A DNA stretch of 61,765 nt, counting the filler, from Isurus oxyrinchus (Eukaryota), in assembly GCA_026770705.1 (NCBI GenBank). It is 3 parts of 3 records of this genome, joined end to end, with 100 filler letters (N's around TTAATTAATTAA, not from the genome) between each part and the next. Parts side by side here need not be neighbours in the genome. Positions count along the whole stretch, not along the records: positions 25,537 to 50,447 come from JANJGN010005252.1; 2 more parts are not named here. One strand, given 5' to 3'. Numbering within the stretch: the first letter of the stretch is position 1; each line of letters begins with the position of its first letter. The notes under the pieces were generated by a model that was not told the DNA's origin, made no database searches, and saw only the letters and a program-made list of their open reading frames with translations. Made by a program: the position numbers and the translations under genes. Positions 13,094-61,765 of the stretch are shown one piece after another.

Positions 13094-13136
13094 AGGGTAA
13101 GCAGACAGACAGGGTGAAAACAAGAAGGATTCCCAT
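13094..13136 (-). CDS. NAR-TCR leader exon
   Basis: MGILLVFTLSVCLP, phase-1 donor GTGAGT, matching the acceptor at 12946-12947. Confidence 0.88.
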
Positions 13137-25436: not shown

Positions 25437-25536
25437 NNNNNNNNNNNNNNNNNNNNNNNNNNNNNNNNNNNNNNNNNNNNTTAATTAATTAANNNNNNNN
25501 NNNNNNNNNNNNNNNNNNNNNNNNNNNNNNNNNNNN
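25437..25536. other. Artificial 100-bp contig linker
   Basis: 44 N + TTAATTAATTAA (stops in all six frames) + 44 N. Confidence 0.95.
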
Positions 25537-27214: not shown

Positions 27215-27530
27215 GAAAAATGGAAATAAGAAAGACTTGCAGTTACACATTGCATTTCACAACCACAGGATACCTTATAGCTCTTCAAAGGCAATGAAGA
27301 TTTTCTATTTCTAAATATATAATCACCAACGTAGTGCAAGGAAACGTGGCCGTGAATTCACGCACAGCAAGATCCAATAAACTGCACTGCGATAAATCAC
27401 CAGATAATCTGATTTTGGGATGTTGCCTGAGTGATAAATATTGGCCTTGGACACAGGGGAGATCTCTCCTGATCTTTGAAATAATTCCATGGGAGCGTTT
27501 ACATTCATCTGAGAGGAATTGGACACTTAG
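27215..27530 (-). mobile_element. SINE fragment (Deu-domain/SacSINE-like)
   Basis: Resembles shark SINE consensus from memory; related pieces near 36800-37050 and 39170-39340. Confidence 0.5.
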
Positions 27531-27807
27531 CACATGTGAGGTGTTTATTGGGAATGCAAAGATTCGCGCTGAATCAATTTAAAACTGAGGCTGCTTTGGA
27601 AAGAGAGTGTCTCATCCCAAAGCATAAACAGACAATCTAAAAAGATACGTTTGTGGAACACGGAATATTAATGGTTAATCATTGTTTATACAGCTGGACT
27701 CAGACAGGAAAAAGGAGGAGGAGCCAGGCTGTTAACTGGGGGAGGAGAGTGACTCCCATTCTCCAGCTTTGTCTCTCTCTCTCTCTCTCTTATTTGACTC
27801 TAGCCGG

Positions 27808-27815
27808 TATAAATA
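27808..27815 (+). promoter_or_regulatory. VH TATA box
   Basis: TATAAATA about 98 bp upstream of the leader ATG; no canonical octamer seen nearby. Confidence 0.65.
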
Positions 27816-27905
27816 GCGGGACGGTTCAGCTCCTGGTTCACAATCCGCAGGTGTCACTGCGACGGAGAGTCACGCTCCCAAGTCAGTTATACCTAGAGAC
27901 TGAAG

Positions 27906-27951
27906 ATGGGATTTGCGCTGTGCCTTTGCTTCTTATTGGCTTGCTTCACCT
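27906..27951 (+). CDS. IGHV: IgH leader exon
   Basis: MGFALCLCFLLACFT, phase-1 donor GTGAGT. Confidence 0.92.
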
Positions 27952-28076
27952 GTGAGTATTCCTGACTGTATAAGTGATACAATAAAGTCTGCTTCTTGTC
28001 TGATATCGTGTTGCTATTTAAGTTCAATGATTTGATTGTTTTCTAATGTAATTACATTTTTTCCATTCGCAAACAG

Positions 28077-28378
28077 ATGTCCAATCCGCCATTGTGCTGA
28101 CTCAGCCGGCTGCAGAGACCGCTAAGCCGGGACAATCTCGCAAACTGTCCTGTTCGGTGAGCGGGTTCAGTCTGGACAGCTACTATGTGAGCTGGGTTAA
28201 ACAAGTTCCTGGGAAAGGGCTGGAGTGGCTCCTTGCTTACAGAAAACCCTCGGATACCACGTATTACGCGCCTGGAGTGGAAGGTCGAATCAACCCATCA
28301 AGAACTTCATCCACAACTTACATTGAGATCAAAAATCTGAGAACCGAAGACACCGCGAGGTATTACTGTGCAGGAGGC
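28077..28378 (+). CDS. IGHV: IgH V exon (IgW-like), unrearranged
   Basis: YVQSAIVLTQPAAETAKPGQSRKLSCSVSGFSLDSYYVSWVKQVPGKGLEWLLAYRKPSDTTYYAPGVEGRINPSRTSSTTYIEIKNLRTEDTARYYCAGG. RSS CACAGCG, 23 bp, ACATAAACC (28379-28417). Confidence 0.95.
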
Positions 28379-28801
28379 CACAGCGACCTGAACAAGCCCA
28401 GAACTCGTACATAAACCACAGAAGAATAATTACAGCGAATCATAGGTCAGTATTAGCTCAAAATAGGTTAAGAGATGTGTTTGAACCTAGCTTGAAAAGT
28501 TACATTTTCCAAGGAAATAAAGTGGTGAATAATAAAAACCAAAAATGACTAACTCTGTATATTAAAGAGCATAGATACCGCTTAGAATGTGCACAACTGA
28601 TGACTAGGAGCCAAGTGGAAATATTAACAAATTATTAGGTGAATGGGGATAATTTTAGCCCAAAGTTCTGCTCCTGAGTAAAACTCTTGGATGAATTGCA
28701 ATCAAAATCTACAAACCTTCTGCTGACTGAAAGGTTTTATTTATACACTGACTCACAGTCAGTGTGTGAGAGCAGTATTTGTGCCGGCTTGTGTCACTGT
28801 G

Positions 28802-28815
28802 TTACTACATTGGGT
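28802..28815 (+). CDS. IgH D1 segment (12/22 RSS)
   Basis: AGTATTTGT, 12 bp, CACTGTG | TTACTACATTGGGT | CACGGTG, 22 bp, ACAAATACC (28774-28853). Confidence 0.93.
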
Positions 28816-29196
28816 CACGGTGCTGTGTATAGCGAACTCCTCATACAAATACCCCAGAGAGGGAGTTTGATCAAATCTGCGATCCATATCACAGCAGGAA
28901 AATCAAATAAAATAAATATGACCAACAATAAGGGTTTGAAGGAACACTGAATTACGAAAAATGTATAAAAGTCTCCATTTTTTACTAATTTTGATTGTCT
29001 TGCTAAATAGGGGCACAGATGTTAAAGGCATATTTCGGTCCATTTATAAACATAATGAAAAATTCTAACTGAAATATCACAGTGATGTATTCCTCGAGTA
29101 TTCAGTATCAGGTTTCTCAGGCCGCTGTGGATTTGAATCTCTGTATTTCTCATTTAACAGTCCGCCGCATTTTTTGTCATGGTGCGTCTCACAGTG

Positions 29197-29210
29197 ATAC
29201 AACTGGATGG
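29197..29210 (+). CDS. IgH D2 segment (12/12 RSS)
   Basis: ATTTTTTGT, 12 bp, CACAGTG | ATACAACTGGATGG | CACAGCC, 12 bp, GCAAAAACC (29169-29238). Confidence 0.93.
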
Positions 29211-29600
29211 CACAGCCGTTACTGTTAATGCAAAAACCTCATCGGGGCTAATTGATTGCATTTCGGTCGATGCATTTTGTTTTTTTACAATACAACCATT
29301 TTAACCAAAGCCCAAACTGTGCCTGGAACTGCCCAATTGACAGGTTTCAAGAGGTGCTAGTGTGTTAATTATTAAATCATTGGCTGCTGCTTTCAATGCA
29401 TGATCATCAGTTACTCTGTGAAATACAGAAAAAGTGTAATTTATAAACTTTAGAAATTCTTTAACAAATTTACTATTCTGATAAAGCAGGTCATGATTTT
29501 ACTCTGCCTCTCCGCTCGGAATTTAAACTAATATTGAATTTCTCCCCTTGTGTGCAGAACTGGTTATTGTGTGACCCAGACCAGCGAATGTAACACTGTG

Positions 29601-29648
29601 ACTATGCTGGCTACTGGGGACAAGGGACCATGGTGACGGTGACTGCAG
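29601..29648 (+). CDS. IGHJ: IgH J segment
   Basis: GGTTATTGT, 23 bp, CACTGTG (29562-29600); YAGYWGQGTMVTVTA; donor GTAAGA. Confidence 0.95.
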
Positions 29649-31524
29649 GTAAGAAACATGCCTTCATTCTGTGCTGTTGGATTTGCTTCATTGTCTCATA
29701 TTTGTTTATTTTAGACATTAATATGTTAACCAAAACATTGCATTGGTGGATTCTGTGTTTACAATGTTTCATTTAATTCTGCCGCAAAGGGATTTAACAA
29801 TTGCTTCTCGGCAAAAAAAAACAATGGGAGTTTTAAGGACTTGTTTGAGTGATTTGTCTTTTTTCTGCTGATGAGGCTTTGTGCCTGGCTTACTTTAAAT
29901 ATTTGAGTTTTGTTAAAGAATTTGGTGTTTCTACTGCTGCAAGTTTTGTAATCGACTGAAAGTATTGTGTTTAAAAGTGTTGGAAATAAGATTGTAGACA
30001 GGAAACCGAGTGCTATCAAGGTCAAAATGTCTTTTTAAGCTATGGATTTTATAATAAATGTTTGTCATGTTTATTTGTGTTAACTGCGCTGAAAAATATC
30101 AATATAAGGTTGACGAACTTTCACCTTAAATAAGTGAAATGCTACGATAAGTAGGAACAACAGAGTTAACAAATTTCCTGCCAGAATCAGGCTTAAAATA
30201 ATACAACTTGAAACATTGTAATGCTGTAATATTCCTCCCCATATTACTAAAGTATACCGTGAAAATCAAACAATGCATTAAACATGACCCATCGAAATAC
30301 AATTCTTCTGCCATTGTTTCATATTTCTGTTTATTTTAATAAATGACTTGTTCAATGAAAGATGATTTCAGTGCGATGTATTGAGGTTTATTTGAAATGT
30401 TGCATCTGATTCTGCTGAAAGGACTTAGGTAATTAAGCAGTTGTTGGATTCAGTCCCTCGGTGTTCTGATTTGGTGCTAAGTGCTAAGGAGAGTATGTGC
30501 CTTGGGTTACTTTGAACAGTTAAAGCTCGTGGAACTGTTTGATGATTCTACAACGTGTAATGTCGATCACATCAAACATGTGTTGGTTATGTGCTTAAAC
30601 CATTGTGAAGGAGGGTTATAGTTACAAAGCAAACAGGCTTTTTAATCAATATTGAAAGATATATTGATGCATTTTTATTTCAGTGCCAATTGCAGATTGA
30701 ACAATTAATATTTTGTTTCTGATGCTCCTATTTAATACTTGAGGTAATAATGCAATGCTAAAGTACATAACCAGCGAAGTTCAACTGTGATGGGGAGTTA
30801 AATGAATATAACTCAAACGACTATAATGCGACAATATTTCCCAAGATTACAACAATAAAAAATAATATTGTTAGACATTTAGCAGATAATCTGTGCTATC
30901 CACAACAATGCTGCAAAACGCAGCACAATTAATAGCAGCCGGACAAATGCAAAGGTTCCAGCAATTTCCATTCTTTTTTTTAATATAATACACACTGATC
31001 GCACTGCAGTATTTAGTTCAAACAGTGATTTTAAATTAATTGGTTCCTCCCTGGTTTATGCAGGTTGAAAGGTGCTAATTATTTATCAATATTAAATGCG
31101 TTTCAGCTGGCTAATTTAATATATCTGCCGGGTTGTTGAACCTTTGCTGTGCAGCCAAACAGTTCCTTGAATTTTAGCCCATTATCACTAAGCTAATCTT
31201 AAACGGTTTGCAGTTAATGAATTGCTCAATAATACTCAAATTCAAAGAAAGTTCAGAATGCATAAGGCTGGAGATGGACAAACATTGCTATTGAAGCAGG
31301 TTGGCTGAATTATAAATGTAACTTCTGAATTGAAGAACAGCAACTAATCTTGCAGAGCTGTGAGATATCCGGGTTGAATTAAATGGGAGCTACCTTTAAT
31401 TCTCATTAAAATCGTTCTGTTTGCTCGCAGAGTTTCAGTGTCTCAGGTGATGCAAAGGAATTGTTATCTCTCAGTTCTGCATTGATGATTGTGGATCTTC
31501 ATTTCAATAAGTAGCATTATATAT

Positions 31525-31725
31525 TTAAACAGAAAATGCTGAATAAAACCTCAGCATGACTGGCAGCATCTGTCCATGGAGAAGCAGAGATCTGAAGAAG
31601 AGTCCTACCGATTTGAAATGCTAAGTCTGTTTCTCTCTCCACTGATGCTGCCAGACGTGCTGAGTTTTGCCAGCATTTTCCGTTTTTATATCAGATTTCC
31701 AACATCCGCCGCATTTTATTTCCAT
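31525..31725. mobile_element. Short Penelope-terminus-derived fold-back element
   Basis: Arms aaaatgctg..ctcagca..tggcagcatc and gatgctgccaga..gctgagttttgccagcatttt are inverted and match the 58071-58130 terminus. Confidence 0.6.
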
Positions 31726-33939
31726 TATATATTTGAAACTCATTTACGTGTAGATTACGGGAATGGTATATCAAAGCTTGGCTGTATTATTATCTAGGGG
31801 AGGCTCCGATAATGGCTACAATCTGGCAGGGATACATTAATTATTAAAAATAAAACTGCTGTTGAAATGTGGGATGATATTTAAACTCCGGAGTCCTGCT
31901 TCAGTGACTTGAGGATGATGCACTCCATTTTTTATTACCGATATGAGTACCCGAATAGTGTTTGAACAATTTTAAGCTGCCAACTTATAAATCTATCATG
32001 TGAAATACACGTTTAGAACAGAAGAGCTTTTATGTCGTGCCAACATAATCACAAACATGAAAACTTTACCAGAGTGTAGGTATAGGACCACCTTCTTATA
32101 ATTTTTGGTCATCTTAATTTATTAAAAGTAATATAATGTATTTGTCCGAAAGTGTATGGAATTATTTATTTAATTTAAGAAGAGTCACCTTAATTTAAAC
32201 AAGCCTATTATTAACAAGAGACAAATCAGAAGGAGAATAAAATTATTAACAAATTTGGCATAATGGTGTTAAATATCACCAATATGAAAATAGAGTCTAA
32301 GTTCAGTACGAATTCATTACAAAAAAATCTCTCAAATGTGCTGCGCTGAGTCCAGGATTAAAGTTAAAACTCATGGTGGAGAATTTTTTAAATTATTTTC
32401 AATTAACTTGGAAAGCAACATGTTTCTTAGTCAACTGCCTTCAGCTCCATTGGATGTTGCTGTACAATTTAATTAATTATCTTCGTGTTTTGCCTCAGCA
32501 GTTTCAATGATTATATATTAATCTGAAAGTATGTCAGTGAATAATAGGAGTACAGTGTAAATATCTCCCAATTTGTTAAATTCTTGCTCTGTTACAATGT
32601 CCCTGTTAGAGACATAAATTACCATGAATGTAAATTATTTTGATGAACCTGTTCTCAGCCAAACTAACTCTAAGGCTGTTGTGAAAACTGCACACAGACA
32701 GGGAGAAATTAAGGCCCATCAAAGGGAATTTTTCCATTTAGAATCAGAATAATTTCACAGAAGTGACGTGGTCATAAATTTACAAACGTTTTAATCTATT
32801 CAAACGGATTAATGGATACTGGAGAAATCTATCTTTAACAGACTGATTTTTGCATCGTTAATGTCTGTTCTGTTTCTATGTGTGTGGTCACTGTGTGGGA
32901 ATCGGGAGCCTTCTGGCTGTTTGTGAACTTTCTGGTTCATTGTCCTGTAATTCAGGGAATTCATTTCGAACCATTTATTTAAGAAGTTTGTATATCCGAG
33001 AAAGGTGCAAATCTGTTCTAAAGTTTGAGAAGGTGCCTCAGAAATCAGATCAGTATTCCAGTTTGTGGAATTCAGAAGGAAAGCAAAATGTAGAAAGATA
33101 TTTTTCTGTTCAGTGTTTGCTGTATCAGAGCCGGTGGTTTGTTGATGGCCCAGTCTAAGCACAAGTTTTAACTAACAATGCGGAATAGAGGGCGTTTTAG
33201 AATGCATCCCACCATTACTGTTCCTGAAATACAGCGCTTCACAGGACTGTGCAAAGAGACTTTTAGTATAATTCACTTGTTCTGTATCTGACATGAGAGT
33301 GTTGGCATTGTCAATGGTCAAGGAACTTTAACCACTATCAAACATATTAATTGCTCCGAATTAGATATGTAAAAGTAAATGCTTAAATTCCTCCAATGAA
33401 GTAGCAGATCGTTAATTTAACGTACATTTCATTCTTAAAAAAAAGCTATGTTTGTGATGAAGGCTTGATGATTAAACATTTTCAATATGAGATAATATTT
33501 GAATCAGATTGGCCTGATCTAAAGCTCAATTTCAGGACAGTTACAGGAAGTGACGGTAACGTTACCTTCTGCGATATGATCGAATCTGAAAATAAATTGA
33601 GCAACTTAAATGGACATTATGGTGCCTTACCCCGTGTCTCATACAAACTACGGTGGGAAGGAAAGCTGGAAAAATATGAGTTTAATTTAACTCAGTGCAC
33701 AACCTGATTCCAACTGCCCGAAGGACATTTGATGAACTATCAGAGAGGCAGTTTTACTCTTGTTCCAAGGGCTTTACTAGGGCTGTGGGTTTTATGTGGA
33801 ACTTCAATGTTCTTCTATCTTGTATCTAATCAGTACAGTCTGTGAACTGTAAACATTTGATTATGTGGTGGAGATGAAACACCTTTTTCTGGACATGTAT
33901 CTATTCATGCATCCATTTTTCATCCAACGATGCAAAGAT

Positions 33940-34340
33940 CGATATATTGAATGGTCTATCTATCTATCGATCGATCTGTCTTTCTACATATCTGTCTACC
34001 TGCCTATCATGTCTATCTGTCTATCTCTCTCTCTCTCTCTATCTTCTATCACTCTCTATCTCTATCTCTTTCTATCTCTCTCTCTCTCTCTATCTATCTA
34101 TCCAACCATCTGTTTATCTGCCTGTCTCTCTCNNNNNNNNNNNNNNNNNNNNNNNNNNNNNNNNNNNNNNNNNNNNNNNNNNNNNNNNNNNNNNNNNNNN
34201 NNNNNNNNNNNNNNNNNNNNNNNNNNNNNNNNNNNNNNNNNNNNNNNNNNNNNNNNNNNNNNNNNNNNNNNNNNNNNNNNNNNNNNNNNNNNTACCGATC
34301 TCTTTAACTCTCTATCTATCTATCTATCTGTTTATCTAAC
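33940..34340. repeat. (CTAT)n/(CT)n microsatellite with N gap 34133-34291
   Basis: Seen directly. Confidence 0.9.
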
Positions 34341-35126
34341 CAAGATAGCTGATAATAATTGATTATTTGTAAACATCATTGTGCATTGGCAAATTTGGAG
34401 AGTTAATTCAGAATTGTGATAGACCGAAAGCTAACTATCCATGCTATCAAATAGTCTCATTGAACAATTCTGGGTCATGCTTTATAAAAGTGCTAAAAAA
34501 TTGCCTGTAAGTAATGAAACTAGTCGATCCACCCGTTGGAGTTACATAATCTTTAGAGCAAATGCTGCCAAGCATCATCCAAGTTTATCCTCTGAAAACG
34601 ACAACGTGTTGATCATGAAACTAGAATAGATTTGTGTAAAAACCCCTCTGGCTCACTGATGTCCTTCCTGGAAGATAATCGGCCATCCTGGCCCAGAGAT
34701 AGCTAACTGTTTCTGTATTACAATAGTCATTTGCTGGCGATAAGAGGTTGATAGTAAAATACTTTAAGCGAGAGCTCATTGGAAATAATGTGGAAGCGTG
34801 TAAAGTGAAAGTGTTTGAGGAATGATTGATGTTTTCTTCAATAGAGGAGCAAGGGCTGGAGGAAGCCCAGGTTACAATATCCCGTATTTAACTCGCAATT
34901 ATGTGGCCTCATGTAAAGTATTTCCCTTTTCCGACTTGTGCAACATCTTGTGTACAAGACTGGCCATCATGGCAGCGTGTCCTGTCGGGCATATCAACTC
35001 CTAAATGCAGTTTATTACCAGGATATTTTGGAAATTAATTATATCAATATTAAACTTCGAACAATTTGCTTATTTCATAATCACGAATCACATTTTTAAG
35101 TTGTTCAATTGACTCTTAATTCGCAG

Positions 35127-35426
35127 TGACACCGTCTCCCCCCACCCTCTACGCTCTGCTCTCCTCCTGTGAACAAGCAAACACTGCCGGCTCCATCACC
35201 TACGGCTGTTTGGCTGCGGACTACTCCCCCGAAATCACCAGCGTTTCCTGGAAGAAAGATCAAGAGACGATCACAGCTGGATTGAAGACTTACCCATCAG
35301 TACTGAACAAGAAGGGAACCCACACCCTGAGCAGCCAGTTAACCATCACCGAATCAGAGGTGGGAAGCAGCACAATCTACTGCGAGGTTCGAAGGAGCAA
35401 CTCGGTCTGGCGGAAGGAAATGCCAG
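35127..35426 (+). CDS. IGHM: IgM C-mu1 exon
   Basis: [17 protein letters not shown]...[18 protein letters not shown]...[17 protein letters not shown]; cgcag acceptor, phase-1 GT donor. Confidence 0.95.
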
Positions 35427-36337
35427 GTTCGTGTTGTGGGATGCACAGGGCGGCAGTGGCGGGGCTGGGTGAAGGGTGAACGTGGTCAGCAAATGAGTTA
35501 TGTTCAAATTCTGCATCACATGGGTTAGAATGGATTGAGAATATTATGTATAGTTCAGGTGCCCATATCACACTTAGTGCATTGTGGATACCTGTATTCT
35601 CCACATCACACTTAGTGTGATATGTACAGCTGTGATCTCCGCATCACAGTTATTGTACTGTAGACAGTTTTTTCTTCCACATCAAAATGTAGTGTACTGT
35701 GTATAATTAGGGCCTCCACATCATAAAAGGTGTATTGTGTGCAGTTATTCCCTCCAAATCATATCGAATATACCATATGTAGTTCTGGTTTCCATGTAAG
35801 GAAAATGCTACAGGGGCGTTGCAATCGGAGCTAAACTATTTACAAGGACATTACCAGAGCTGATAGATTACTTCTGTCATGTAACTGCGAACAGGTTGGT
35901 GGTCAATTCTCTACAAAATAAAAAATTGTGGTGTGACCAAATAAAGGTCCTCAGACTTCTGAAATAATTTGATACATTAGACAAGAATTAGAGCTCATGT
36001 TTACAACAGAATGTTAAAAAGAAACGATTGGCTATTCTGAATCTTTACACAAAGAGTGAGCAGAATGTGGGAATTCCTGTAGGTGAGATGTTACCGAAAC
36101 TCTGTTCAGGGGAATCTTAATAGATACATGAGGGAGAATGTAAGGGAGGTATTTTTTTTTTCTGCTGAGAGGTGAAATAGGGCGAGAGGATGTTCGTGTG
36201 GATCCTAAACTCCAGCATTGTACTATGGGGCCGGTTGGCCTGGTTCTGTCCTGTGGATTTTATGTAATTAGTTTTACAGTTTTTAATTGTTTGGTTTGAA
36301 GCAATTTTAATTCCAAATAATATATATTTTCTTGCAG

Positions 36338-36649
36338 TTATTGTGGTGCATCATCCGACTGTTCTGCTCACCGTGAGCCCCAGTGAAGAAATCACAAGCA
36401 GCAGATTTGCAACCATCATCTGTTCAATCATTGATTTCCGTCCAAATTCAATCAAGGTGAAATGGCTGAAAAATGGACAAGCCATGGCCTCCGGCTTCGT
36501 CACCTCTCCCGGCTTTGAAGTGAACAGGAACTTCTCGGCGACCAGTCGGTTGACAGTCCCCGCTGGGGACTGGTTCAGTCACACGCTCTATACCTGCCAG
36601 GTCACTCATAAAAGGGTCACCCAAAGCCGAAACATCACCAAACCTGAGG
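36338..36649 (+). CDS. IGHM: IgM C-mu2 exon
   Basis: [12 protein letters not shown]...[15 protein letters not shown]...YTCQVTH...NITKPE; ttgcag acceptor, gtaaga donor. Confidence 0.95.
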
Positions 36650-37289
36650 GTAAGAGACACAACCCGAGGAAGTTCAAGGCCATTCTTGGTGTCAATCTCT
36701 TCCAAGCCAAGAAATATTTTGGAATGATTAAACGTCAGCGATTGTGTCCCATTTGCCAACTTGCCCATTTGTGTTTCCTTCCAAAGGAAACAAGAACACA
36801 CTAAAGAAATCCTTTCATTTATAAAGCGCCCTCCCCAGCATCAGATTTTCCCAAAACACTTAGCAGCCAATGAATGACCGTGGAAATGTGCTCATTGTGG
36901 TAAAGTAGAATATTCAGCAGCGATTTGCTGCACAACAGTCACCAAGACCCTGGGACATGATGCTGACAGGATTTATTTATTTATTTTTTGATTTCATTCT
37001 GTTTGTTCAGGTACACATGTTGTCCAGGAAATAGACACACTTCAGCTCAGCATTTCGAACGTTTTCTTTTCATTTTTATTTCAAATTTCCAGCAATATTT
37101 GGCTTCTGGAACTAAAGACCATTATTGGTTTTGCTGTTGGGGAGTTAAACTAACTCAGGAGGAGCGTGGGAACAACGAGAGAATTTCAGCATGTAATAGC
37201 ATGAATTCTGGGAGAGGCAGCTAACTCTAAAAGAGGGAATAGTCAGTTAATAGGCGGAGTCAGGATAAGGGAGCAAACAATGAATTCTA

Positions 37290-39170
37290 AATTAGCGTTG
37301 CACTGCATGTATGTGCATGCATGGAAAATAGTTAATAAAATGTGGGAGTTACAGGCACAGATTGCCTTTTGGGATTATTATGATAGGGTGATAACGGAGA
37401 CCTAATTTAAGGAAGGACAGAATTGGGTGATACAAGATGTTCATAAAAGACAGGAAAGGACACAAACTGGAGGCGGGGTCGTGGTGGCGTTTTTGTTTAA
37501 GGAGAGTATTTCAGTACTGGCGAAAAATAATGTGTCAGGCGATTCAAGGACAGAACCAATTTGGCTGGAGCAAAGGAATAAGAATGGTGCAATTACATTG
37601 CTGGGTGTAATGTATAGACCGCAATAGCTAGTGGGAAGATGGAGAGGAGCAAGTAAATAACAGAGAGCTGTAAATATCATCGAGTAGTCATAACGGAGGG
37701 GGAAGGGTACATTACCCGAATACATACTGGGATAGTAGTACTGTAAGGGGCAGTGAGGGAGCAGCATTCCTAGATCATATTCTGGAGAATTTCTGACAGC
37801 AGTGTGTGTCCAGTGCAAGGAGAAAGGAGGCACTGCTAGACCTGGTTCTTGGGAATGAGGTGGGCCAAGTAAAGAAACTGATAGGAGGCGAGCATTTAGG
37901 GGACAGTGATCATTGTATCATAAGGTTTAGGATGACGGTGGAAAATGACATTGATCAATCCAGGGAAAGAGCAGCCAACTGGCAGAGAGCAGACTTCAAT
38001 GGGGCAAGAATGGGCCTGGGCCTGATAGACTGGAACCAAAGGTTGGTGGGAAAAACAGTAGCTGAACATTGGGCTAACTTCAAAGAGAAGATGGTTTTGG
38101 CGCAGTCTAAGTATGTTCCCTCAAAAGAGAAGGGCAGGAGAAACAAGTCCAGAGCTCCCTGGATGGCAAAGGAGATAGAAATTAAGTTAAGGAAGAAAAG
38201 ATGTCTTACAACAGGTGTCTGGTAGCAAATACATTTGAGAACCAAGCTTAATTCAGAAGTTTCAGAAAGGATGTGTAAAAGCAAATACGAGAATCAAAGA
38301 GGGATTATGAAAAAAATACTGACAGCTAACATAAAAGGAAATCCCAAGGTATTCTATAAGCATATCAATCGTAAAAAGGTTGTAAAAGGAGGAATAGACC
38401 GATCAGGGATCAAAAAGGGGATTTACACATAGCGGCAAGAGGCATGGCTGAGGTGTTAAATGAATACTTTGCAGCTGTCTTTACCTACGAGGTAGATACT
38501 GCCCAGGTTATGGTGACAGAGGAGGAAACTCAGTCACTAGAAGGGTTTGAAATTGCTAAGGATGAGGTATTGCATCAGCTGTCGGCTCCTAAAGTGGATA
38601 AGTCTCCGGGACAGGGTGATATTCGTCTAAGAGTATTGAAGGAAGTGAGAGTGGAATTGCAGAGGCACTGACAATAATCTTTCAGCGTCCCCTGCATTTG
38701 GACGAGGTGTTAAAGGACTGGAGAATTGCAAATATTACGCCCTTGTTCAAAAAAGTTTGTAAAGGTCTTCCCTGCAATTACAGACGATTCAGTTTAACTT
38801 CGGTGGTGGGGAAACTTCTAGAAACAATTATTCCGGATGGAATTAATATCATGTGGGATAATGTAGATTGATTAGGAAGAGTCATCATGGATTTATTAAA
38901 GGAAAATCCTGTATAACTAACTTGCTGGAGTTTATTCAAGAGGTAACAGAGATGGTTAATGAGGGCAAGGCCGTTGATATGGTCTATTTGGATTTCCAAA
39001 AGGCTTTCGACACAATGCCACACAACAGACCTGTGAGGAAAGTTATAGATGATGGACTTAAAGGGACAATAGCTAACTGGATAAATATTTATATATATAA
39101 ATGATGTAGATCTTGGTTTGCAGGGGGCAATTTAAAGGATTGTGGAGGATGCAAAACTTGGGAGAATTTG
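37290..39170 (+). mobile_element. CR1 LINE ORF2 relic (endonuclease + RT) in the Cmu2-Cmu3 intron
   Basis: LLDLVLGNE, HLGDSDH, HGFIKGKSCITNLLEF, VYLDFQKAFD; multiple frameshifts. Confidence 0.93.
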
Positions 39171-40236
39171 GAGAAAGGTGACGTCACACTGACAAAGCAG
39201 GCATTCCTGGGCCTTAACAGTTGATGTTGAAGTTGGTGCCTCCCACAATACAATACTCACCCAGTACTACATTGCTGGTATCAGCTACACTTGTGTTCAA
39301 ACATCTGGAGTGGGGATTGAACCCATGTTCTTTCTGAATCAGAATCCCCGGTGTCCAGGATTCTATTAGCTCACAAAACACGGTGACATTTTGTTCAAGA
39401 GTTGGACAGTGAGTGGGGAGTCAATGGTTTTAGTTTTACCCGAAATTGATTGTGGGTAGAATCGGTGTCTGCAGGCCTTTAGTGGTAATTGCCCACGACT
39501 TCAATTCTGACAAAGATATACACTTTATTTCTGCTGCTGTTTTCAGACTGAGCAGCGCTGATAGCAGTTTGCATAGTCTCGGCTGCATTTCTTTGAGTAC
39601 AATAGTCTAATGAGTGATCGAATTGCGGTGTTTCAGTTAATTAATAAAGTGGGGAGAAAATGCTTAGTCCTCCAAATTAGAGATAGGAAACTAGTGAGGA
39701 AGCCGATTTTGGCAACATTTTCCTCACACTGTGAAATATTATCACTTTCATTTTCCCCAAGAATTTCTGAGGCTGGGAATCAATTGACATTTCAAAAAAA
39801 GAGATTAACATTTTTTTTTGAAAATGTTATCGCACATGACAGAACGAGGAGGATAAATGGGGTTAAGGCACACATTATTCTTACAGAGAGACATAGAGAG
39901 CTGAATGGTCTCCTCCTGTGCTGTTAGCGTTCTATCATTCTCTGATTCCTTGATTTCGGGACGAGTAATATTCTGTCTGTAAGACGATTGTACCTGAATT
40001 TATTCACATTGTTGGACCGGCATTTGGTTTAGTCATTCCCACTGGTTCTGGCTGGAAATACACAGGGAATGTTATGGAGTCTCCCGGAATTATTGCAAGT
40101 CATTGACCTTCAAACAATGAAGGCGTTAACAGGGCAGGGGGAGATCAGGTAAATATTCCTGTCGTGAGAGTGAAAGCTGAATACCGGATTTCTGATTCTG
40201 ATGATGTTTTGGTTGACATTCATTTCTGCTTCACAG

Positions 40237-40542
40237 TTTCCGACTGCAACGACCCCGTAATTACTCTACAGCCGCCGCCAATAGCACAGGTCTTACTGGA
40301 GGCGACAGTGACCTTAACCTGTATCGTGAGTAACGCCCCTTATGGAGTCCTTGTGTCCTGGACACAAGAACAGAAGCCTTTGAAATCAGAGATTGCTGTC
40401 CAGCCGGGAGAGGATCCTAACAGCGTGGTCAGCCACCTGAACATCTCAACACAAGCCTGGCTGAGTGGGGCTGAGTTCTACTGCGTGGTGAGCCATCAGG
40501 ATCTGCCGACTCCTTTAAGAAATTCCATCCACAAGGAAGAAC
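40237..40542 (+). CDS. IGHM: IgM C-mu3 exon
   Basis: [14 protein letters not shown]...[16 protein letters not shown]...[22 protein letters not shown]; tcacag acceptor, gtgagt donor. Confidence 0.95.
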
Positions 40543-41040
40543 GTGAGTGCTGAGAATGAATCAATAAGTGAGAGAGTGTGCAAATTCCCGGTGTAAGTTT
40601 AAGAACCAATAATCAATGCACAATGTACTAATGAGCAAGTCTGATTGGCAATTTCACTAACTATAACCCCTTGGTCCGTAAATGATGCATTTAAGTAGTA
40701 AATTCATATTTAGGTGAATGAACAAGAAACTGTGCTGCAGGGTTTGATTATATAATGTGGGAGGAGCTTGGTGTGGAGTTCAGACACCAGTACAGAGCTG
40801 TTCGGCCGAATGGCCTGTTACTGTTACTGATGAAACTTTCCAGTCCAATCCCGCATATTCTCAGAGCGAATGATTGCATCCACATCTGCTCCGATCTAGA
40901 AAGCCGGTCAGACCCCAAAGTGGAAAATGGAGATCTTGAAAAGTCAAAACAAAACACATTTCTCTCACATCTAACCACTGGTGTCATTGTCCCTGGAATT
41001 CTCCAGTTTTTTTTTTACATTTATTGTCAATTTTTTGCAG

Positions 41041-41432
41041 CTAAATATCCGCGGGAACCGTCCGTCTCTGTCCTCCTGCCCCCGGCTGAAGATGTCTCCG
41101 CTCAGAGATTCATTTCCCTCAGCTGCTTAGTGAGAGGTTTCTCCCCCCGAGAGATCTTCGTCAAGTGGACCGTCAATGACAAGCCGGTGAATCCGGGGAA
41201 CTACAAGAACACCGAGGTGATGGCGGAGAACGGCAATAACTCCTTCTTCATGTACAGCCTGTTATCCATTGCAGCGGAGGAGTGGGCCAGCGGCGCTTCT
41301 TACTCCTGTGTGGTGGGACATGAAGCCATTCCCTTGAAATTCATCAACAGAACGGTTGATAAATCCAGCGGTAAACCGAGTTTTGTGAACATTTCCCTTG
41401 CACTGATGGACACCGTTAATTCATGTCAATGA
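41041..41432 (+). CDS. IGHM: IgM C-mu4 exon plus secretory tailpiece
   Basis: [12 protein letters not shown]...[16 protein letters not shown]...YSCVVGHEA...KSS. Internal donor G|GTAAAC at 41370/41371. Tail [20 protein letters not shown] with N-glycan site and penultimate Cys. AATAAA at 41469. Confidence 0.96.
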
Positions 41433-42439
41433 GAATCTATCACTTACTTTTCGAACTTTAGTAGAAATAATAAAGGATCTTCCTCCAATTGTGAATTAAA
41501 TACACAGCCACTTAATTAATTATTTTTTTTCCAGTTTTGCTAATGTTAGGCCTGTTTAGTTGATGTCGGGAATTTACAGGTCTCAGACCCGAGTCTTGTG
41601 CAATCCGTGCCCCCAGCTCAGATACACCCTGGGTTAGAGACAGAATAAAGCTCATTCATTACAGAATCCTGTAAAGTTACTTCACCAACTTGCCCCTCGC
41701 TGAGGTGAATTCTGACCATTTCCCATTTCCCACTAGCACACACAGTGGCAGCATTCAGATCCCATTGTTCCTGCTTCACTTTTCGTCCATCCATTCAAAC
41801 TTCTACCAGCCGGATGTTGCCACATCGCACCCACTGGGAACTGAAGTGAGGGTCACAAGGGAAGGTGAAATCTATCTCGACTTAGCCAACATAGAAATGG
41901 GGAAGGGCATTAGCTAACGCAATGCACCTGCACATCCCCAACACAGATAACCGGAGTGGAAATTGTTTAGCCAACGAGAGAGAGTGGAGAGGGGAACATT
42001 AACTCACTAACCTCCCAATCCCAGTCACAGAGGGTTTAGAAGTGAACAGCTGTCTATGATATGAGTTCAGATACAAGGCGGCTTCTAGCTTCCTGCGCTC
42101 AGATTGTAATCTTCAATCATGGCAAACATATCATGGCAAATCATGGCAAAGTGATGTTTTGAAATGATTTTCAATCTCTTGTTCTTGTAAATCACAAGTT
42201 GCCAATGATTTTTCATAATCCAAATCTGAACTGCTGTTTCCATCCTTCCTGTTTTTCCGGTACTGTTTCTAATGTTTCTGGGGAACCTCTGTTTAATTGT
42301 TGCATTCTATCGCTTGATGTCACATTGAACCCCAAAGAAAACACATTCATACATAGAATGGCGAATTGTGTTCTCCATCGATCATACCTTCACTGTCAGG
42401 CCACGTTATTGATGTTCAGTGATACAAGAAACAACAACA

Positions 42440-43198
42440 TAATACACACACACACTGACATAAGCTCATAAACACACACACACACACGGACTCACGTGCA
42501 CACACAGAAACACACACAAGCACGCACACATACTCACACACACATTGACAGAAACAATGCAAGTGCACGAGTACATAACAATACACACATAAACACACAC
42601 ATGCACACATACACACAGGCAAAGACAGACAGACACACACCCTGGCACAAGATCACACGCACACACAGACACACACACACACACACGCACACACATACAC
42701 ACACACACATATACACATACAGACAAAGACAGGCTCACACACACCCTGGCACAAGATTACCTACACACATGCACACTCACACACACACAACAAAGACACA
42801 CACACAATCTGACACCAGATCTCTCTCTTTCTCTCTCTCACAGACAAATGCACACAGCGACACAGAGATACAAACACATGCATACACAACCAGTGATAGG
42901 AAAATGCACACACAATAGTACGTAAAACATACACACATACACACACCCAAACACCCACACATACACACACACAGACAAAGACACTGTCACACACACCCTG
43001 GCAAAAGATCACAAACGGACTCACACACACATAACAAAGGCACACACCCAATCTGAAACCAGATCTCTCTCTCCGTCTCTCACAGACAAACACACACAGA
43101 GACACACACATGCACTGAAACCAAATTGCGTACAAACACGTACACAAAGGCAGGCACACACACACAAACATGAACAAGCACACACATCCACATGAACA

Positions 43199-43231
<33 letters not shown>

Positions 43232-43872
43232 TCCCGCGTGCACTGGATCATGCTCACATGCTCGAACAAATCAACACAGAAGACATACACACATGCAGAC
43301 AAAAACACGCAGACAGACATACACACACACATACACACACACACACATACATAAACAAGCAAACACATCCACGCACAAACACGCACACACAACATTGGAT
43401 CATGCCCGAACACATAAACAAAGGCTGACATAAACACAGTGAGAGAAAAGCACACGGACAGGCACAGATGCACATATAAGCACACACACACATACGTAAA
43501 CAAGCACACACATCCCCACACACACACTAACATCCACACACACACACAAATGCACACAGGCTTTGACACAGACATGCACACACAGACGCACTTACAGACA
43601 CACAAACACATGCATATATGAACACGCATACAGTTATGCACAGATATACACACATTCAGGCACACATGCAGGCAGACAGATGCACACACACTAACACATC
43701 CACTGGATCATACACATATGCCCGAACAGATAAACACAGACTGGCATTGACACAGACAGACAAAATTACACAGACAGACACAGAGGCACACACGCATGCA
43801 TGCACATACACAGACACACACACAAACATACAAACATACATAAACAAGCACACACATTGACGCACACACACA

Positions 43873-43910
<38 letters not shown>

Positions 43911-44324
43911 AACGCACTCTGATAGACACACACAAACATAGGCATGCGCACACACACACTCACACATGCATAAACGAGCATACATACAGGCATACACCGA
44001 CATACACACATTCGTGCACACACGCAGGCAGATAGACACACACACCCACCCACTGGATCATGCACACTTGCCCGATCACATAAACACAGACTGACATTGA
44101 CACAGACAGACAAAAGCACGCACCCAGACACAGAGGCATCACACACACACAAAAGCATATGTAAACAAGCACACACATCGACATACACACACACACATTC
44201 ACACACACACACATTCACACACACACACATTCACGCACACACACATACACAAACACACACACATTTGGATAGATACAAACCCACAGACATTGAAGCAGAC
44301 ATGCACACACACATGCACTTACAG

Positions 44325-44355
<31 letters not shown>

Positions 44356-44707
44356 CATACATGAGATCGCATACAGGCAAAACAGAGGTACACACATTCG
44401 AGCACACAAGCAGACAGGCAGACAGAGACACACAGAAGCACACATACATCATAAAGAGAAACACACACTCACACACATCCAGACACAAGATCACACACAC
44501 ACATACGCAAACACACACACAATCACACAGGCATATACACAAACCCGCGCACACATATTCACACAAACACACACACACACAAACACATGGACGCATACAC
44601 ACAAAAACAAATTGAGTCACACGATCAAAACACACAAACACACATGTAAACGCACACCCACACACTGATAAAATACACACACAAACACACACACAGGCAG
44701 AAGATCG

Positions 44708-44738
<31 letters not shown>

Positions 44739-45028
44739 AAACATGCATAGGTACACAGAAACAAACACACAGGTTCGTGCATAGGCACGGGAAAAGAGGC
44801 ACACGTACACAAACACGTGCAAGCATGCATGGATACATAGGCAGGCATACACGCGCACACACATACACATACATACACAAGCACAAGCATACATATACAC
44901 ACAAACCAGCACACAGACACATATACACATAGCCACACACACAAGCACACAAGAATGCACATGCAAACACAGACCCACACAATGATAAACATGCACAGGC
45001 ATACACACACAAACAAACCCACACTCAC

Positions 45029-45061
<33 letters not shown>

Positions 45062-46030
45062 AGAGTACACATATACATAGAAAATATGCAGACATGCAAC
45101 TCACAGGAACACACAGCACATATGCACAGATGCAACCTCACACTCAGAAATATACACTCACTCTCGACAAACAGACACACAGACAGACACACTCACGCAC
45201 AAGCAAGCACCTGAAAATGCAGATATCCTCTCACACACATGCACACACAGTCACACACATGCAAACGGTTGTGAGCAAACACACAAACACACATGCATGG
45301 ATGCACTCAACACACACAATTACAGATATACACAACCCCATAAACAGGCTCAGACAGGTCCTGTAAGTTTGTACATGAACATGTTCATTACTGTGCTTCA
45401 ACGAGCACAACAGTACAGAATTAAGGACACACTATCATACACAATAGTGCACATGCATAGGCATTTGTACACACACATTAAAAATCGACAAACGGGTACA
45501 CAGACAAATAGATGAGCAGACAGTAACATTTTCACAAACATAGTGCAAGAAACAACTATGAATACATCCACGCACTCACATTAAAACAAACATATGTAAA
45601 CACACGCTTTAGTAAACATAGATACGTAAATATACATTAAGACAAAGCTAGAAACATCCAAGAACACATAACGGCACGCCTCAACATACTCACACGCTCA
45701 TGGGGGCACAATCATTAACATATCAAACATAGAACATAAAAAGGCACAATATCAGATATATTAACAGGCATGGACGTAAATAAACTCCTTAACACAGACA
45801 TTAATAAGTGAACATAAACATCAACGCATACAGACACATTAACACACTGATACACATTCATTTACAAATGGACAAACATACACACAAAGGCGGGCCACAT
45901 ATAAATAAGCATATCAACACTCATGCCACATGAACACACACATCAACGCTCATACAACAGGGCACACAAACACAGTTAAAGGCAGAGCAAGAGATACACG
46001 TGCACATATACGCAAATATTTAAAAAACAC
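42440..46030. repeat. ~3.6 kb degenerate (CA)n tract
   Basis: Seen directly; source of the many HT/CV-rich spurious ORFs. Confidence 0.95.
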
Positions 46031-46629
46031 AAAGGCAAATGCCAGGCTAAAGACGAAAGAATATTTTAAATCTATTTTTTTTAAAGGACACATCTTCCAA
46101 AAATTTCTGGGAGCACATAAAGACCCAGGAGACAGGCTGAAGCAATGTTCTTAATCATAAACTGATTTAAGTTAATTATGTGCCAAACATTACCACCACA
46201 AATAAACAAACAAGATCAAAATTCACAAAAGATAGCTAACAGAGTTCAGAGTCTTGGAATTAATAGCTATCAGTACTTATCATTAAAATAATTGTGATCA
46301 ATTAGCAAACCTCCTGCAATTTCCACCATAATATAATCCAGTGATAGGTCGTACTAAATTCATCCAAAATAAACTGGCATCGAAGGAATAAAAACACATT
46401 TTCCAGTAGGGGCAGGATGAGAAATGTAAAGTGAGAGCAGCTGTGGAGTTAGTAACAGACAGAGATTGTTGAGAGTCACTTATTCATTAATAGATATGCA
46501 TTGAAAACTTAATTACTGAACAGATCAAAAGCTTGAGGAAGATACAATAGAATTAATATATTAAAAAAACGGTAAGACACCCTCGATTAATAAGAATGTA
46601 ATTAAAATTTCTCGGTTATATCCCTGTAG

Positions 46630-46757
46630 ATTCCACAGACCGCATCTGGATTGAAGACAATGAGGACGATAACGGGAACATCTGGACAACCGCTTCCACA
46701 TTCATTGTCCTGTTCTTCCTGAGCATTTTCTACAGCACTGCCGTCACTCTGGCGAAG
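46630..46757 (+). CDS. IGHM: IgM TM1 exon
   Basis: DSTDRIWIEDNEDDNGNIWTTASTFIVLFFLSIFYSTAVTLAK (CART motif); ctgtag acceptor, gtgaga donor. Confidence 0.95.
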
Positions 46758-46897
46758 GTGAGAAGATTCAATCCACTAACACTACAATCTGACAGAAGCG
46801 GTTTGAAAACTTTCTAAATATTTGAACAATTAAAAACTATAACATAAATGCACAAGATCATAAACATCTGCTTCATTATTTTCTCCCTCTTTTACAG

Positions 46898-46906
46898 ATC
46901 AAGTGA
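46898..46906 (+). CDS. IGHM: IgM TM2 exon (IK-stop)
   Basis: tttacag|ATC AAG TGA; candidate AATAAA at 47303. Confidence 0.9.
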   Translation: MK

Positions 46907-50447: not shown

Positions 50448-50547
50448 NNNNNNNNNNNNNNNNNNNNNNNNNNNNNNNNNNNNNNNNNNNNTTAATTAAT
50501 TAANNNNNNNNNNNNNNNNNNNNNNNNNNNNNNNNNNNNNNNNNNNN
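50448..50547. other. Artificial 100-bp contig linker
   Basis: 44 N + TTAATTAATTAA + 44 N, identical to 25437-25536. Confidence 0.95.
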
Positions 50548-52003: not shown

Positions 52004-52049
52004 CTGGGAGCAGCAGAAACATGAGGTACAGGAAAGCACTGTGCAGCAT
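52004..52049 (-). pseudogene. TRBV: Leader exon of the truncated TCR beta-like V
   Basis: MLHSAFLYLMFLLLP, phase-1 GT donor compatible with the acceptor at 51553-51554. Confidence 0.75.
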
Positions 52050-58071: not shown

Positions 58072-60155
58072 AAAAACAGAATTAGCTGGAAAAACTCAGC
58101 AGGTCTGGCAGCATCGGCGGAGAAGAAAAGAGTTGACGTTTCGAGTCCTCATGACCCTTCGACAGAACTTGATTTCGAGTCCAGGAAAGAGTTGAAATAT
58201 AAGCTGGTTTAAGGTGTATGTGTGGGGGGGGGGGGGGAGGAGAGAGAGAGAGAGAGACAGAGGTGCTTGTGTAGACAAACAAGCAGTGATAGAAGCAGAT
58301 CATCAAAAGATGTCAGTAACAATGGTACAAAAGAACACATAGGTGTTAAAGTTAAAGTTGGTGATATTATCTAAACGAATGTGCTAATTAAGAATGGATG
58401 GTAGGGCACTCAAGGTATAGCTCTAGTGGGGGTGGGGGGAGCATAAAAGATTTTAAAATATTTAAAAATAATGGAAATAGGTGGGAAAAGAAAAATCTAT
58501 ATAATTTATAGGGAAAAAAAAAGGGGGAAACAGAAAGGGGTTGGGGATGGGGGAGGGAGCTCACGACCTAAAGTTATTGAATTCAATATTCAGACCGGAA
58601 GGCTGTAAGGTGCCTAGTCGGAAGATGAGGTGTTGTTCCTCCAGTTTGCGTTGGGCTTCACTGGAACAATGCAGTAAGCCAAGGACAGACATGTGGGCAA
58701 GAGAGCAGGGTGGAGTGTTAAAATGGCAAGCCACAGGGAGGTTTGGGTCATTCTTGCGGACAGACCGCAGGTGTTCTGCAAAGCGGTCGCCCAGTTTACG
58801 TTTGGTCTCTCCAATGTAGAGGAGACCACATTGGGAGCAACGAATGCAGTAGACTAAGTTGGGGGAAATGCAAGTGAAATGCTGCTTCACTTGAAAGGAA
58901 TGTTTGGGCCCTTGGACGGTGAGGAGAGAGGAAGTGAAGGGGCAGGTGTTACATCTTTTGCGTGGACATGGGGTGGTGCCATAGGAGGGGGTTGAGGAGT
59001 AGGGGGTGATGGAGGAGTGGACCAGGGTGTCCCGGAGGGAGCGATCCCTACGGAATGCCGATAAGGGGGGTGAAGGGAAGATGTGTTTGGTGGTGGCATC
59101 ATGCTGGAGTTGGCGGAAATGGCGGAGGATGATCCTTTGAATGCGGAGGCTGGTGGGGTGATAAGTGAGGACAAGGGGGACCCTATCATGTTTCTGGGAG
59201 GGAGGAGAAGGCGTGAGGGCGGATGCGCGGGAGATGGGCCGGACACGGTTGAGGGCCCTGTCAACGACCGTGGGTGGAAAACCTCGGTTAAGGAAGAAGG
59301 AGGACATGTCAGAGGAACCGTTTTTGAAGGTAGCATCATCGGAACAGATGCGACGGAGGCGAAGGAACTGGGAGAATGGGATGGAGTCCTTACAGGAAGC
59401 GGGGTGTGAGGAGCTGTAGTCGAGGTAGCTGTGGGAGTCGGTGGGTTTGTAGTGGATATTGGTGGACAGTCTATCACCAGAGATTGAGACAGAGAGGTCA
59501 AGGAAGGGAAGGGAAGTGTCAGAGATGGACCACGTGAAAATGATGGAGGGGTGGAGATTGGAAGCAAAATTAATAAATTTTTCCAAGTCCCGACGAGAGC
59601 ATGAAGCAGCACCGAAGTAATCATCGATGTACCGGAGAAAGAGTTGTGGAAGGGGGCCGGGGTAGGACTGCAACAAGGAATGTTCCACATATCCCATAAA
59701 GAGACAGGCATAGCTGGGGCCCATGCGGGTACCCATAGCCACACCTTTTATTTGGAGGAAGTGAGAGGAGTTGAAGGAGAAATTGTTCAGTGTGAGAACA
59801 AGTTCAGCCAGACGGAGGAGAGTAGTGGTGGATGGGGATTGTTCGGGCCTCTGTTCGAGGAAGAAGCTAAGGGCCCTCAGACCATCCTGGTGGGGGATGG
59901 AGGTGTAGAGGGATTGGACGTCCATGGTGAAGAGGAAGCGGTTGGAGCCAGGGAACTGGAAATTGTTGATGTGACGTAAGGTGTCAGAGGAATCACGGAT
60001 GTAGGTGGGAAGGGACTGGACAAGGGGAGAGAGAAGGGAGTCAAGATAACGAGAAATGAGTTCTGTGGGGCAGGAGCAAGCTGAGACGATCGGTCTACCA
60101 GGGCAGTTCTGTTTGTGGATTTTGGGTAGGAGATAGAAGCGGGCCATCCGAGGTT
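58072..60155 (-). mobile_element. Penelope-like retroelement (Neptune-type), 5'-truncated inverted copy: RT + GIY-YIG
   Basis: 528-aa ORF 58561..60147 with FYLLPKIHK, GVAMG, RYIDD, Cys linker CPRKRCNTC and NLVYCIRC..LYIGET. Confidence 0.95.
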
Positions 60156-61765
60156 CTGTTTTTGTTTTGGATTTCCAGCATCCGCAGTTTTCTTTGTTTT
60201 CAACTCTGTGTTTAATTGACTGCCACTGCTCTTCAAGAAATGCCTACCTCCTTGAAGAAGTTCTGTTCCTCTCTGCGACAAGATTTCCGTATCTCTCTGT
60301 TGCCTTGTTCACCTTCTTTGCTTTCCATTTCCCTCCTAGTGTTTGACAAGGTGTTTACTAAAACCCGCTTTCACAGCCATATCTCCTTTCTCAGTGACTG
60401 CCTCCGTCTCCGACTTAACCCACGTGGATTTCAACTGAAATTCCACCCCTCATCTTTCGAACCCACCCAGGATTACCGGTATCTCCGGGACATAAAACGT
60501 TTCTCAGACTGCTGTTCCCGTCACATTCTGAAATCCACACTCAGTGCCATGCGCCGCCATATGAACACACTCGACCTTTCCCTCCAGCAGCACCGCCATA
60601 CCCTTTTTCAAAGCTGCGCGTGCCCCCAGTTTCATTTTATCCTTCGGCTCATCCGACGCCTCAACAAGAAACTTTTTCTCTTTCTCTCAACTGCTAAGGA
60701 ACGCAAGCTCCAACAACTCATCGACACCAACACCCATCTAGGACCCTCCACCCCAGCCTGTCCCTCCGTCCCCACCCCATCTTCCAATCCCAGCCCCAGC
60801 CGTGTATTCACTATACCCCCTGACCTTCCCCTCTCCGATGCTGAACGTTCAGTGCTCAGCAAAGGACTTAGTTTCATACCCTTACGCCCTCACCTCAATG
60901 AATTTCGGGCTCGGCATGATGCTGAACTCTTCTTTCGCCGTCTTCGTCTCCGGGCTCACTTCTTTGGGCAGGAGTCCTCTCCCAGTTCAACGGATCCTTT
61001 TACCCATCTCCAATATTCTCCCTCCACCTGGACCCCTCCCTCTGGATTCTTACCTTCTCTTGATCTTTTCATTGAGAACTGTCGGCGCGACATTAGTCGT
61101 CTCAATTTCTCTGCTCCTCTCACCCATTCTAACCTGTCTCTCTCTGAACTTACTGCACTCCATTCTCTCAGGTCCAACCCTGACATTGTCATCAAACCCG
61201 CTGACAAGGGTGGTGCTGTTGTTGTCTGGCGCACTGACATCTACCTCGCGGAGGCTGAGCGTCAACTCGCAGACACTTCCTCCTACCTCTCCCTGGACCA
61301 TGACCCCACCACTGAACATCAAGCCATTGTTTCCAGGACTGTCACTGACCTCATCTCCTCTGGGGATCTCCCTCCCACAGCTTCCAACCTGATAGTCGCC
61401 CAACCTCGGACGGCCCGCTTCTATCTCCTACCCAAAATCCACAAACAGAACTGCCCTGGTAGACCGATCGTCTCAGCTTGCTCCTGCCCCACAGAACTCA
61501 TTTCTCGTTATCTTGACTCCCTTCTCTCTCCCCTTGTCCAGTCCCTTCCCACCTACATCCGTGATTCCTCTGACACCTTACGTCACATCAACAATTTCCA
61601 GTTCCCTGGCCCCAACCGCTTCCTCTTCACCATGGACGTCCAATCTCTCTACACCTCCATCCCCCACCAGGATGGTCTGAGGGCCCTTAGCTTCTTCCTC
61701 GAACAGAGGCCCGAACAATCCCCATCCACCACTACTCTCCTCCGTCTGGCTGAACTTGTTCTCAC
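60156..61765 (+). mobile_element. Penelope-like retroelement, 5' part with open ORF running off the window
   Basis: Frame from ATG 60240 read without stops through IVIKPADKGGAVVVW and FYLLPKIHK; 61402-61765 is nearly identical to the reverse complement of ~59790-60155. Confidence 0.92.

Follow-up and report, generated by a model that had tools for sequence, protein, structure and literature searches.

The window analyzed here is a stretch of 61,765 nucleotides (nt; filler included) from the genome of the mako, Isurus oxyrinchus (GenBank assembly GCA_026770705.1), composed of three parts of three records joined end to end. The middle part (JANJGN010005252.1, positions 25537 to 50447) carries, at positions 27906 to 46906, an immunoglobulin heavy-chain cluster made up of a leader, one variable (V), two diversity (D1 and D2) and one joining (J) segment, four mu constant (Cmu) exons and transmembrane (TM) exons. 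We put at roughly 80% the probability that this is an intact IgM cluster whose leader and V are of IgW lineage and whose D, J and C are of mu type, likely the outcome of one ancient germline exchange, and matching the horn shark cluster lambda-1113.

All exon frames of the cluster were open, with AG/GT exon ends, and the secreted and membrane chains were both free of stop codons after in silico splicing. V to J occupy 28077 to 29648, with the four segments within about 2 kb, followed by the Cmu exons and then TM; V of this type was present in one copy in the window. The V exon was recognized by Pfam as V-set and all four C exons as C1-set. From V to J, the spacers of the recombination signal sequences (RSSs) ran 23 / 12-D1-22 / 12-D2-12 / 23. 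The six RSSs bordering V, D1, D2 and J had two to three mismatches each, apart from just one in that of J. The same laxity gave 27 RSS-like matches across the entire window, and the six were taken as real because they are placed beside segments, not by score alone. A donor for the membrane form lies inside the Cmu4 exon, after position 41370, with AATAAA at 41469. In its layout, mu constant region, secretory-tail cysteine and membrane splice, the locus conforms to an elasmobranch IgM heavy-chain cluster. The first-pass annotation, made from the sequence alone, had described the RSSs, splice sites and frames as intact in this layout and the mu constant exons as clear; the RSS scan and in silico splicing bear out the one statement, and the C identities and C tree given below the other.

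Leader, V, J and C compared with IgW and IgM

The mako V was 58 to 69% identical to the IgW V compared (8/8), versus 42 to 53% to the IgM V (6/6). Its leader had 9 to 12 identities over 19 positions with 10 IgW leaders, versus 7 to 8 with eight of nine IgM leaders, the ninth being out of register in the comparison; identity to the leader of a catshark V gene reached 13/19. Framework region 3 (FR3) was equal in length to that of 14 of the 15 IgW V and 2 amino acids (aa) shorter than that of all 17 chondrichthyan IgM V.

A V tree was built from 43 rows and 96 columns, row P0248 being excluded as no V was extracted from it. TAILV, IgNAR V and lambda-1113 lay outside its scope, as did the horn shark family-I V (P0261), which was used only for comparing leader, J, C and FR3 length. 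The mako V paired with the cloudy catshark V described below (support 99/92), and the pair nested in a clade (97/95) with a white shark IgW V and the horn shark IgW W26 (Swiss-Prot P83907, row P0164). The 16 chondrichthyan IgM V, holocephalan included, all fell in a clade of their own (97/97). In approximately unbiased (AU) tests, grouping of the mako V with IgM V was rejected (P = 0.007), as was an IgW clade without it (P = 0.006); an IgW clade that included it was not rejected (P = 0.67) and fitted slightly better than the free tree. The AU result and the shorter FR3 set this V apart from canonical shark IgM VH (family I / groups 1 to 5), and the tree grouping, W-type leader and short FR3 place it in the IgW V lineage. 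The gene is not of the IgW isotype, as the cluster has neither C-omega exons nor a W-type J. The earlier view that the leader, V and short FR3 resemble IgW and not canonical mu V was upheld by the identities, tree and AU test, and the phylogeny against IgM and IgW V that it called for gave no strong grouping inside IgM VH. A PDB search returned solely mammalian-type antibody V among the best 60 of 5829 matches. A metagenome scan gave six loci, comprising five mammal-type VH and one weak match, none of them informative.

The J and C segments gave the opposite picture. The J had 10 to 12 identities over 12 positions with eight IgM J versus 6 to 8 with nine IgW J. The first constant domain (CH1) was 80 to 83% identical to the two closest Cmu, 46 to 72% to other Cmu and 25 to 35% to IgW chains, and CH4 was 78 to 95% identical to shark Cmu versus 37 to 41% to IgW chains. 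In the C tree the C of the cluster fell inside elasmobranch Cmu. Sequence comparison thereby confirmed an IgW-type assignment for the leader and V and a mu-type assignment for D, J and C.

Two observations on the C sequences stand beside these results. CH4 (41041 to 41370) was 95% identical to canonical catshark IgM and 83% to the presumed catshark orthologue, the reverse of CH1 and CH2, and partial gene conversion of the 3' exons is possible. Several shark and ray chains labelled "mu heavy chain-like" or "gamma-1-like" (P0013, P0014, P0015, P0019 and P0021) were IgW by sequence.

The horn shark counterpart and related sharks

Lambda-1113 was reported by Hinds-Frey et al. in 1993 as a "monotypic" second VH family (GenBank Z11776; PMC2191167). 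In the passages of that paper used here, it is a single horn shark (Heterodontus francisci) cluster whose V is about 61% identical to family I, the threshold for a VH family being 70%, with a 3-nt insertion in complementarity-determining region 2 (CDR2) and a 6-nt deletion in FR3, and three cDNAs with Cmu are described. An inversion between D1 and D2 was proposed there to have freed the cluster from gene correction, explaining its divergence.

By hand count against Fig. 5 of that paper, the mako V matched the lambda-1113 V at 79 of 96 aa (82%) and at 242 of 287 readable nt (84%), gap-free, and the nucleotide identity exceeds the family threshold. A 27-nt stretch from the lambda-1113 CDR2 matched positions 28232 to 28258 with one mismatch, which occurred in 0 of 100 shuffles. 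Relative to family I, both V have one extra codon in CDR2 and two fewer in FR3 (23 versus 25), a net difference of minus one. The mako D1 has both bases termed unique to the lambda-1113 D1, and by eye 12 of 13 aligned bases match lambda-1113, versus 9 to 10 of 13 for family-I D1. The V, these D1 bases and a mu-type J and C are thus common to both clusters, lambda-1113 being expressed as VDJ-Cmu. They differ in RSS order, which is V23-12D12-23D12-23J in lambda-1113 (an inverted D1-D2 spacer) and the ordinary 12-D1-22 / 12-D2-12 in the mako. Lambda-1113 is also from another species, and the available passages of the 1993 paper draw no link to a second isotype. Judged by these matches, the mako cluster is the counterpart of lambda-1113. 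This had been suspected in the first-pass annotation, and the match to the published gene removes most of the novelty and leaves the observation standing.

In the cloudy catshark, scyTo_0014239 (GCB60864) contains a V 81% identical to the mako V, and scyTo_0014240 (GCB60865) contains a J and Cmu with identities of 83, 78, 73 and 83% across CH1 to CH4. The two have consecutive tags and accessions and each lies on a 159,436-nt contig; the pair is sister to the mako cluster in the V and C trees, and the models are unannotated hypothetical proteins.

A search of public sequencing runs gave 19 rows, 17 of which hold part of the stretch. Rows of small share, a coral metatranscriptome among them, were set aside, and V-J joints were compared in four runs from two close relatives (organisms A and B). 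In runs X3 and X4 (organism B, two studies), one contig each joins V to J through non-germline junctions of 32 and 36 nt, both in frame and stop-free by eye. The X4 contig, 536 nt long and of equal length and depth in the V-J and CH1 comparisons, carries V (8 differences in 250), then the 36-nt junction and J, and reaches CH1 (7 of 211 positions differing); contigs from other clusters show 19 differences from CH1 in 120 positions or 24 in 140. In run X1 (organism A) the leader-V splice (27951>28077, GT..AG) was found, with no V-J joint among the joints listed. A CH1>CH2 GT..AG joint was present in three of three runs; in run X13 the introns were covered as genomic DNA would be (30/30 bins). 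Of the V-to-Cmu cDNAs that the first-pass annotation had looked to, a probable one was seen in a relative, as a VDJ-CH1 contig, and none holding the mako sequence. These findings make the cluster an old and conserved one that relatives of the mako express.

Cluster coordinates and other segments in the window

Coordinates of the cluster are listed in Table 1. Upstream of the leader, an octamer was looked for and no match was found within 27300 to 27910. In the CH2-CH3 intron, at about 37200 to 39100, lies what by eye appears to be decayed LINE-like sequence.

Table 1. Features of the mako IgM cluster, in window positions
Feature	Position	Strand	Basis or remark
TATA-like box	27808..27813	+	upstream of leader
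Leader exon, IgW-type (MG..LC start)	27906..27951	+	9-12/19 identities to IgW leaders
V exon, IgW-lineage, lambda-1113 counterpart	28077..28378	+	identity, tree, AU tests, figure comparison
V 23-RSS	28379..28417	+	RSS scan
D1 5' 12-RSS	28774..28801	-	RSS scan
D1, 14 nt	28802..28815	+	by-eye comparison with horn shark D1
D1 3' RSS, 22-nt spacer, ordinary orientation	28816..28853	+	RSS scan
D2 5' 12-RSS	29169..29196	-	RSS scan
D2, 14 nt, resembles horn shark IgM D2	29197..29210	+	
D2 3' 12-RSS, heptamer with 2 mismatches	29211..29238	+	RSS scan
J 23-RSS	29562..29600	-	RSS scan
J segment, mu-type	29601..29648	+	GT donor; 10-12/12 identities to IgM J
Assembly gap, 160 N, inside microsatellite, J-C intron	34133..34292	.	
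Cmu1 (CH1)	35127..35426	+	C1-set; identity to shark Cmu
Cmu2 (CH2)	36338..36649	+	C1-set
Cmu3 (CH3)	40237..40542	+	C1-set
Cmu4 (CH4) and secretory tail with penultimate Cys at end	41041..41432	+	C1-set
TM1 exon	46630..46757	+	
TM2 exon (IK-stop)	46898..46906	+	

The part carrying the cluster is bounded by two 100-base spacers of identical sequence (44 N, 12 fixed bases, 44 N) at 25437 to 25536 and 50448 to 50547. These are artificial joins, and order and orientation across them are therefore no evidence of linkage.

Further antigen-receptor segments were identified beyond these spacers. An intact-looking V-D-J unit at 13136 to 11816 (minus strand), which we take to be of the NAR-TCR type, has a leader, an open V exon (12945 to 12657), RSSs in the order 22 / 12-D-12 / 23 and a J with a GT donor; no intact copy of a supporting T-cell receptor (TCR) delta V was found downstream of it within the window. 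A second NAR-TCR-like V at 7860 to 7325 (minus strand) is germline-joined to D-J and, having lost its ATG and acquired a frameshift as well as a J stop codon, is a pseudogene. The TCRdelta-like V at 4620 to 4215 (minus strand) contains an in-frame stop, and its 23-RSS is duplicated in tandem (4312 and 4253); it is likely a broken supporting V. A V 3' remnant is situated near 2093 to 2230 (plus strand). On the other side of the cluster, a TCR-like V truncated in FR3 was found at 52048 to 51281 (minus strand; leader near 52048, exon from 51551), and the 3' end of a V with its 23-RSS, cut off by a retroelement, at 58060 to 57951 (minus strand). The NAR-TCR units and the last two fragments suggest an antigen-receptor complex, though the artificial spacers part them from the IgM piece. 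Two reverse-transcriptase open reading frames (ORFs) in opposite orientation occupy 58564 to 60243 (minus strand) and 60216 to 61763 (plus strand); the former, open for 560 residues, matched RVT_1 and, weakly, GIY-YIG, and is Penelope-like.

Origin of the cluster and its significance

The closest V after the orthologue is the W26-type IgW V (P83907; white shark XP_041031595), at 65 to 69% identity and with the leader type and short FR3 in common; W26-type IgW genes, however, use a W-type J and C-omega, whereas the mako cluster has a mu J and four Cmu domains. Conversely, canonical IgM clusters (nurse shark groups 1 to 5, horn shark family I and Triakis) are alike in layout, RSS order, J, tailpiece and membrane splice, but canonical elasmobranch IgM V are phylogenetically separate and share only the low identity given above. 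TAILV are stand-alone Ig-like V that rearrange only to TCRdelta D-J; the mako V differs from them in having its own D-D-J-Cmu, to which it is joined in relatives. Somatic IgW/IgM switching and Ig-TCRdelta trans-rearrangement resemble the present case as instances of V sharing between linked loci (PMC12227049, PMC4279169). Both processes act in somatic cells, and it is TCRdelta that TAILV and NAR-TCR serve, whereas the mako cluster is germline, unrearranged and equipped with its own D-J-Cmu.

In the mechanism we propose, the leader and V unit of an IgM cluster would have been replaced by germline crossover or gene conversion with a neighboring IgW cluster; linkage of IgM, IgW and TCR-alpha/delta clusters in sharks has been reported (PMC12227049). 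The mu character of D and J places the join between V and D1 instead of in the J-C intron; the break would fall between the 3' end of V and D1 (28379 to 28801). The exchange would predate the horn shark-catshark split, and the gene would then have stayed at single or low copy, escaping homogenization with the main VH family, with the horn shark D1-D2 inversion as a later, lineage-specific change. Between the two origins offered in the first-pass annotation, inter-cluster recombination or an ancient lineage, the evidence makes an exchange likely and an old one; the event is shared with other sharks and is not a recent recombination in the mako genome. RAG would join V, D1, D2 and J inside the cluster under the 12/23 rule, in-frame joins being seen in the relatives; joining within one cluster is established in sharks (PMC2191167 and PMC2435157). 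Splicing of the VDJ to Cmu1, present in one contig of a relative, would then yield ordinary IgM, membrane or secreted, whose binding site is built on an IgW framework.

It is unlikely that the V was never borrowed, an old VH having remained on Cmu while W26-type IgW got its V from IgM or both kept an ancestral V. The free tree does not unite the IgW V as one clade and places them close to the base of cartilaginous-fish V, several bony-vertebrate V in the set look similarly short in FR3 by row length, so that the trait may be ancestral, and the C region of the cluster is also its own lineage. Yet the grouping of holocephalan with elasmobranch IgM V makes ordinary mu V older than this lineage, the tree with IgW and the mako V as one clade has a slightly better fit, and attachment of the W26 clade to IgM was rejected, marginally and for a group picked after the tree was seen (P = 0.045). 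An origin of the V by drift of a family-I mu V that had escaped gene conversion, as the 1993 paper would have it, appears very improbable. The D1-D2 inversion proposed in the relevant passages to relieve the cluster of gene correction (PMC2191167) is not needed for the divergence, because the mako copy is uninverted and equally divergent, and drift was rejected on that ground, on the AU test against grouping with IgM V, and on the leader, FR3 length and nearest relatives, which point to IgW.

There is even less to recommend the two remaining explanations. Somatic switching of the AID type in the nurse shark puts IgW V regions on IgM constant regions, according to a review (PMC4279169), and such a product fixed in the germline could be imagined; but switching relocates a VDJ that is already joined, and a W-type J would come with it. 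In the mako none of V, D1, D2 and J is rearranged and both D and J are of mu type, and we rejected this reading as scarcely credible. An assembly chimera, with an IgW V-D-J scaffolded onto Cmu over an N gap, is brought to mind by the 160-N gap in the J-C intron and by a window built from pieces with artificial spacers. However, the mu-type J stands before the gap and is contiguous with V, V, J and CH1 are covered at 97% by a single contig from a relative, and the V-Cmu pairing recurs in catshark and horn shark. The spanning contig refutes the chimera, for which next to no chance is left, and together with the catshark neighbor pair makes the V-Cmu link independent of the gap.

Several points weigh against an ancient IgW-to-IgM exchange shared with lambda-1113. 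The IgW V backbone is poorly supported in a tree of only 96 columns, and the direction from W to mu therefore rests on the nesting and one marginal test. The break is bounded and not mapped. The comparison with lambda-1113 was made on machine-read figure text, not in an alignment or tree. The C of the cluster groups with that of scyTo_0014240 at 94/96, just below the star threshold, and adjacency of the catshark V and Cmu is deduced from tags and shared contig size, not from DNA. No public run among the 19 rows holds the mako sequence itself (best word share 0.34, none reaching half), and the RNA status of the runs is a guess with which exon-only cover and GT..AG joints agree; from these reads, expression is evident in relatives approximately 95 to 97% identical, not in the mako itself. 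Finally, identity among nurse shark IgM VH is reported to exceed 75% throughout (PMC2435157), and the gene thus seems absent or missed there and may have been lost.

A gene of this type was published no later than 1993, and the mako gene is mostly known, which limits its interest; its conservation in several sharks, its formal placement with IgW and the secondary nature of the inversion may be new. The IgX/IgW papers of the 1990s may have noted the IgW likeness, and absence from print is not claimed. In the literature searched, parts of papers included (among them PMC5192425, PMC6795676 and PMC3964593), no statement of lambda-1113 as IgW-derived was found, the main primary IgW papers lying outside that search.

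The second horn shark VH family, an anomaly for 30 years, can now be re-read as an apparent case of an IgW V within an IgM cluster. A bolder proposal, tentative and rather doubtful as it stands, is that the lambda-1113 type is a hidden, conserved galeomorph IgM subclass derived from one IgW V capture, which horn shark, catshark and at least one other lineage would have kept in intact and expressed form for well over 100 million years; the subclass would have a C lineage to itself and possibly its own job, and would not yet be recognized in print. If that were true, the cluster would be a fossil of a step at which linked IgM and IgW clusters shared V. The exchange itself would provide a concrete case of germline V transfer between such clusters, as has been suggested for NAR-TCR/IgNAR and for the way a shared-V translocon arose.

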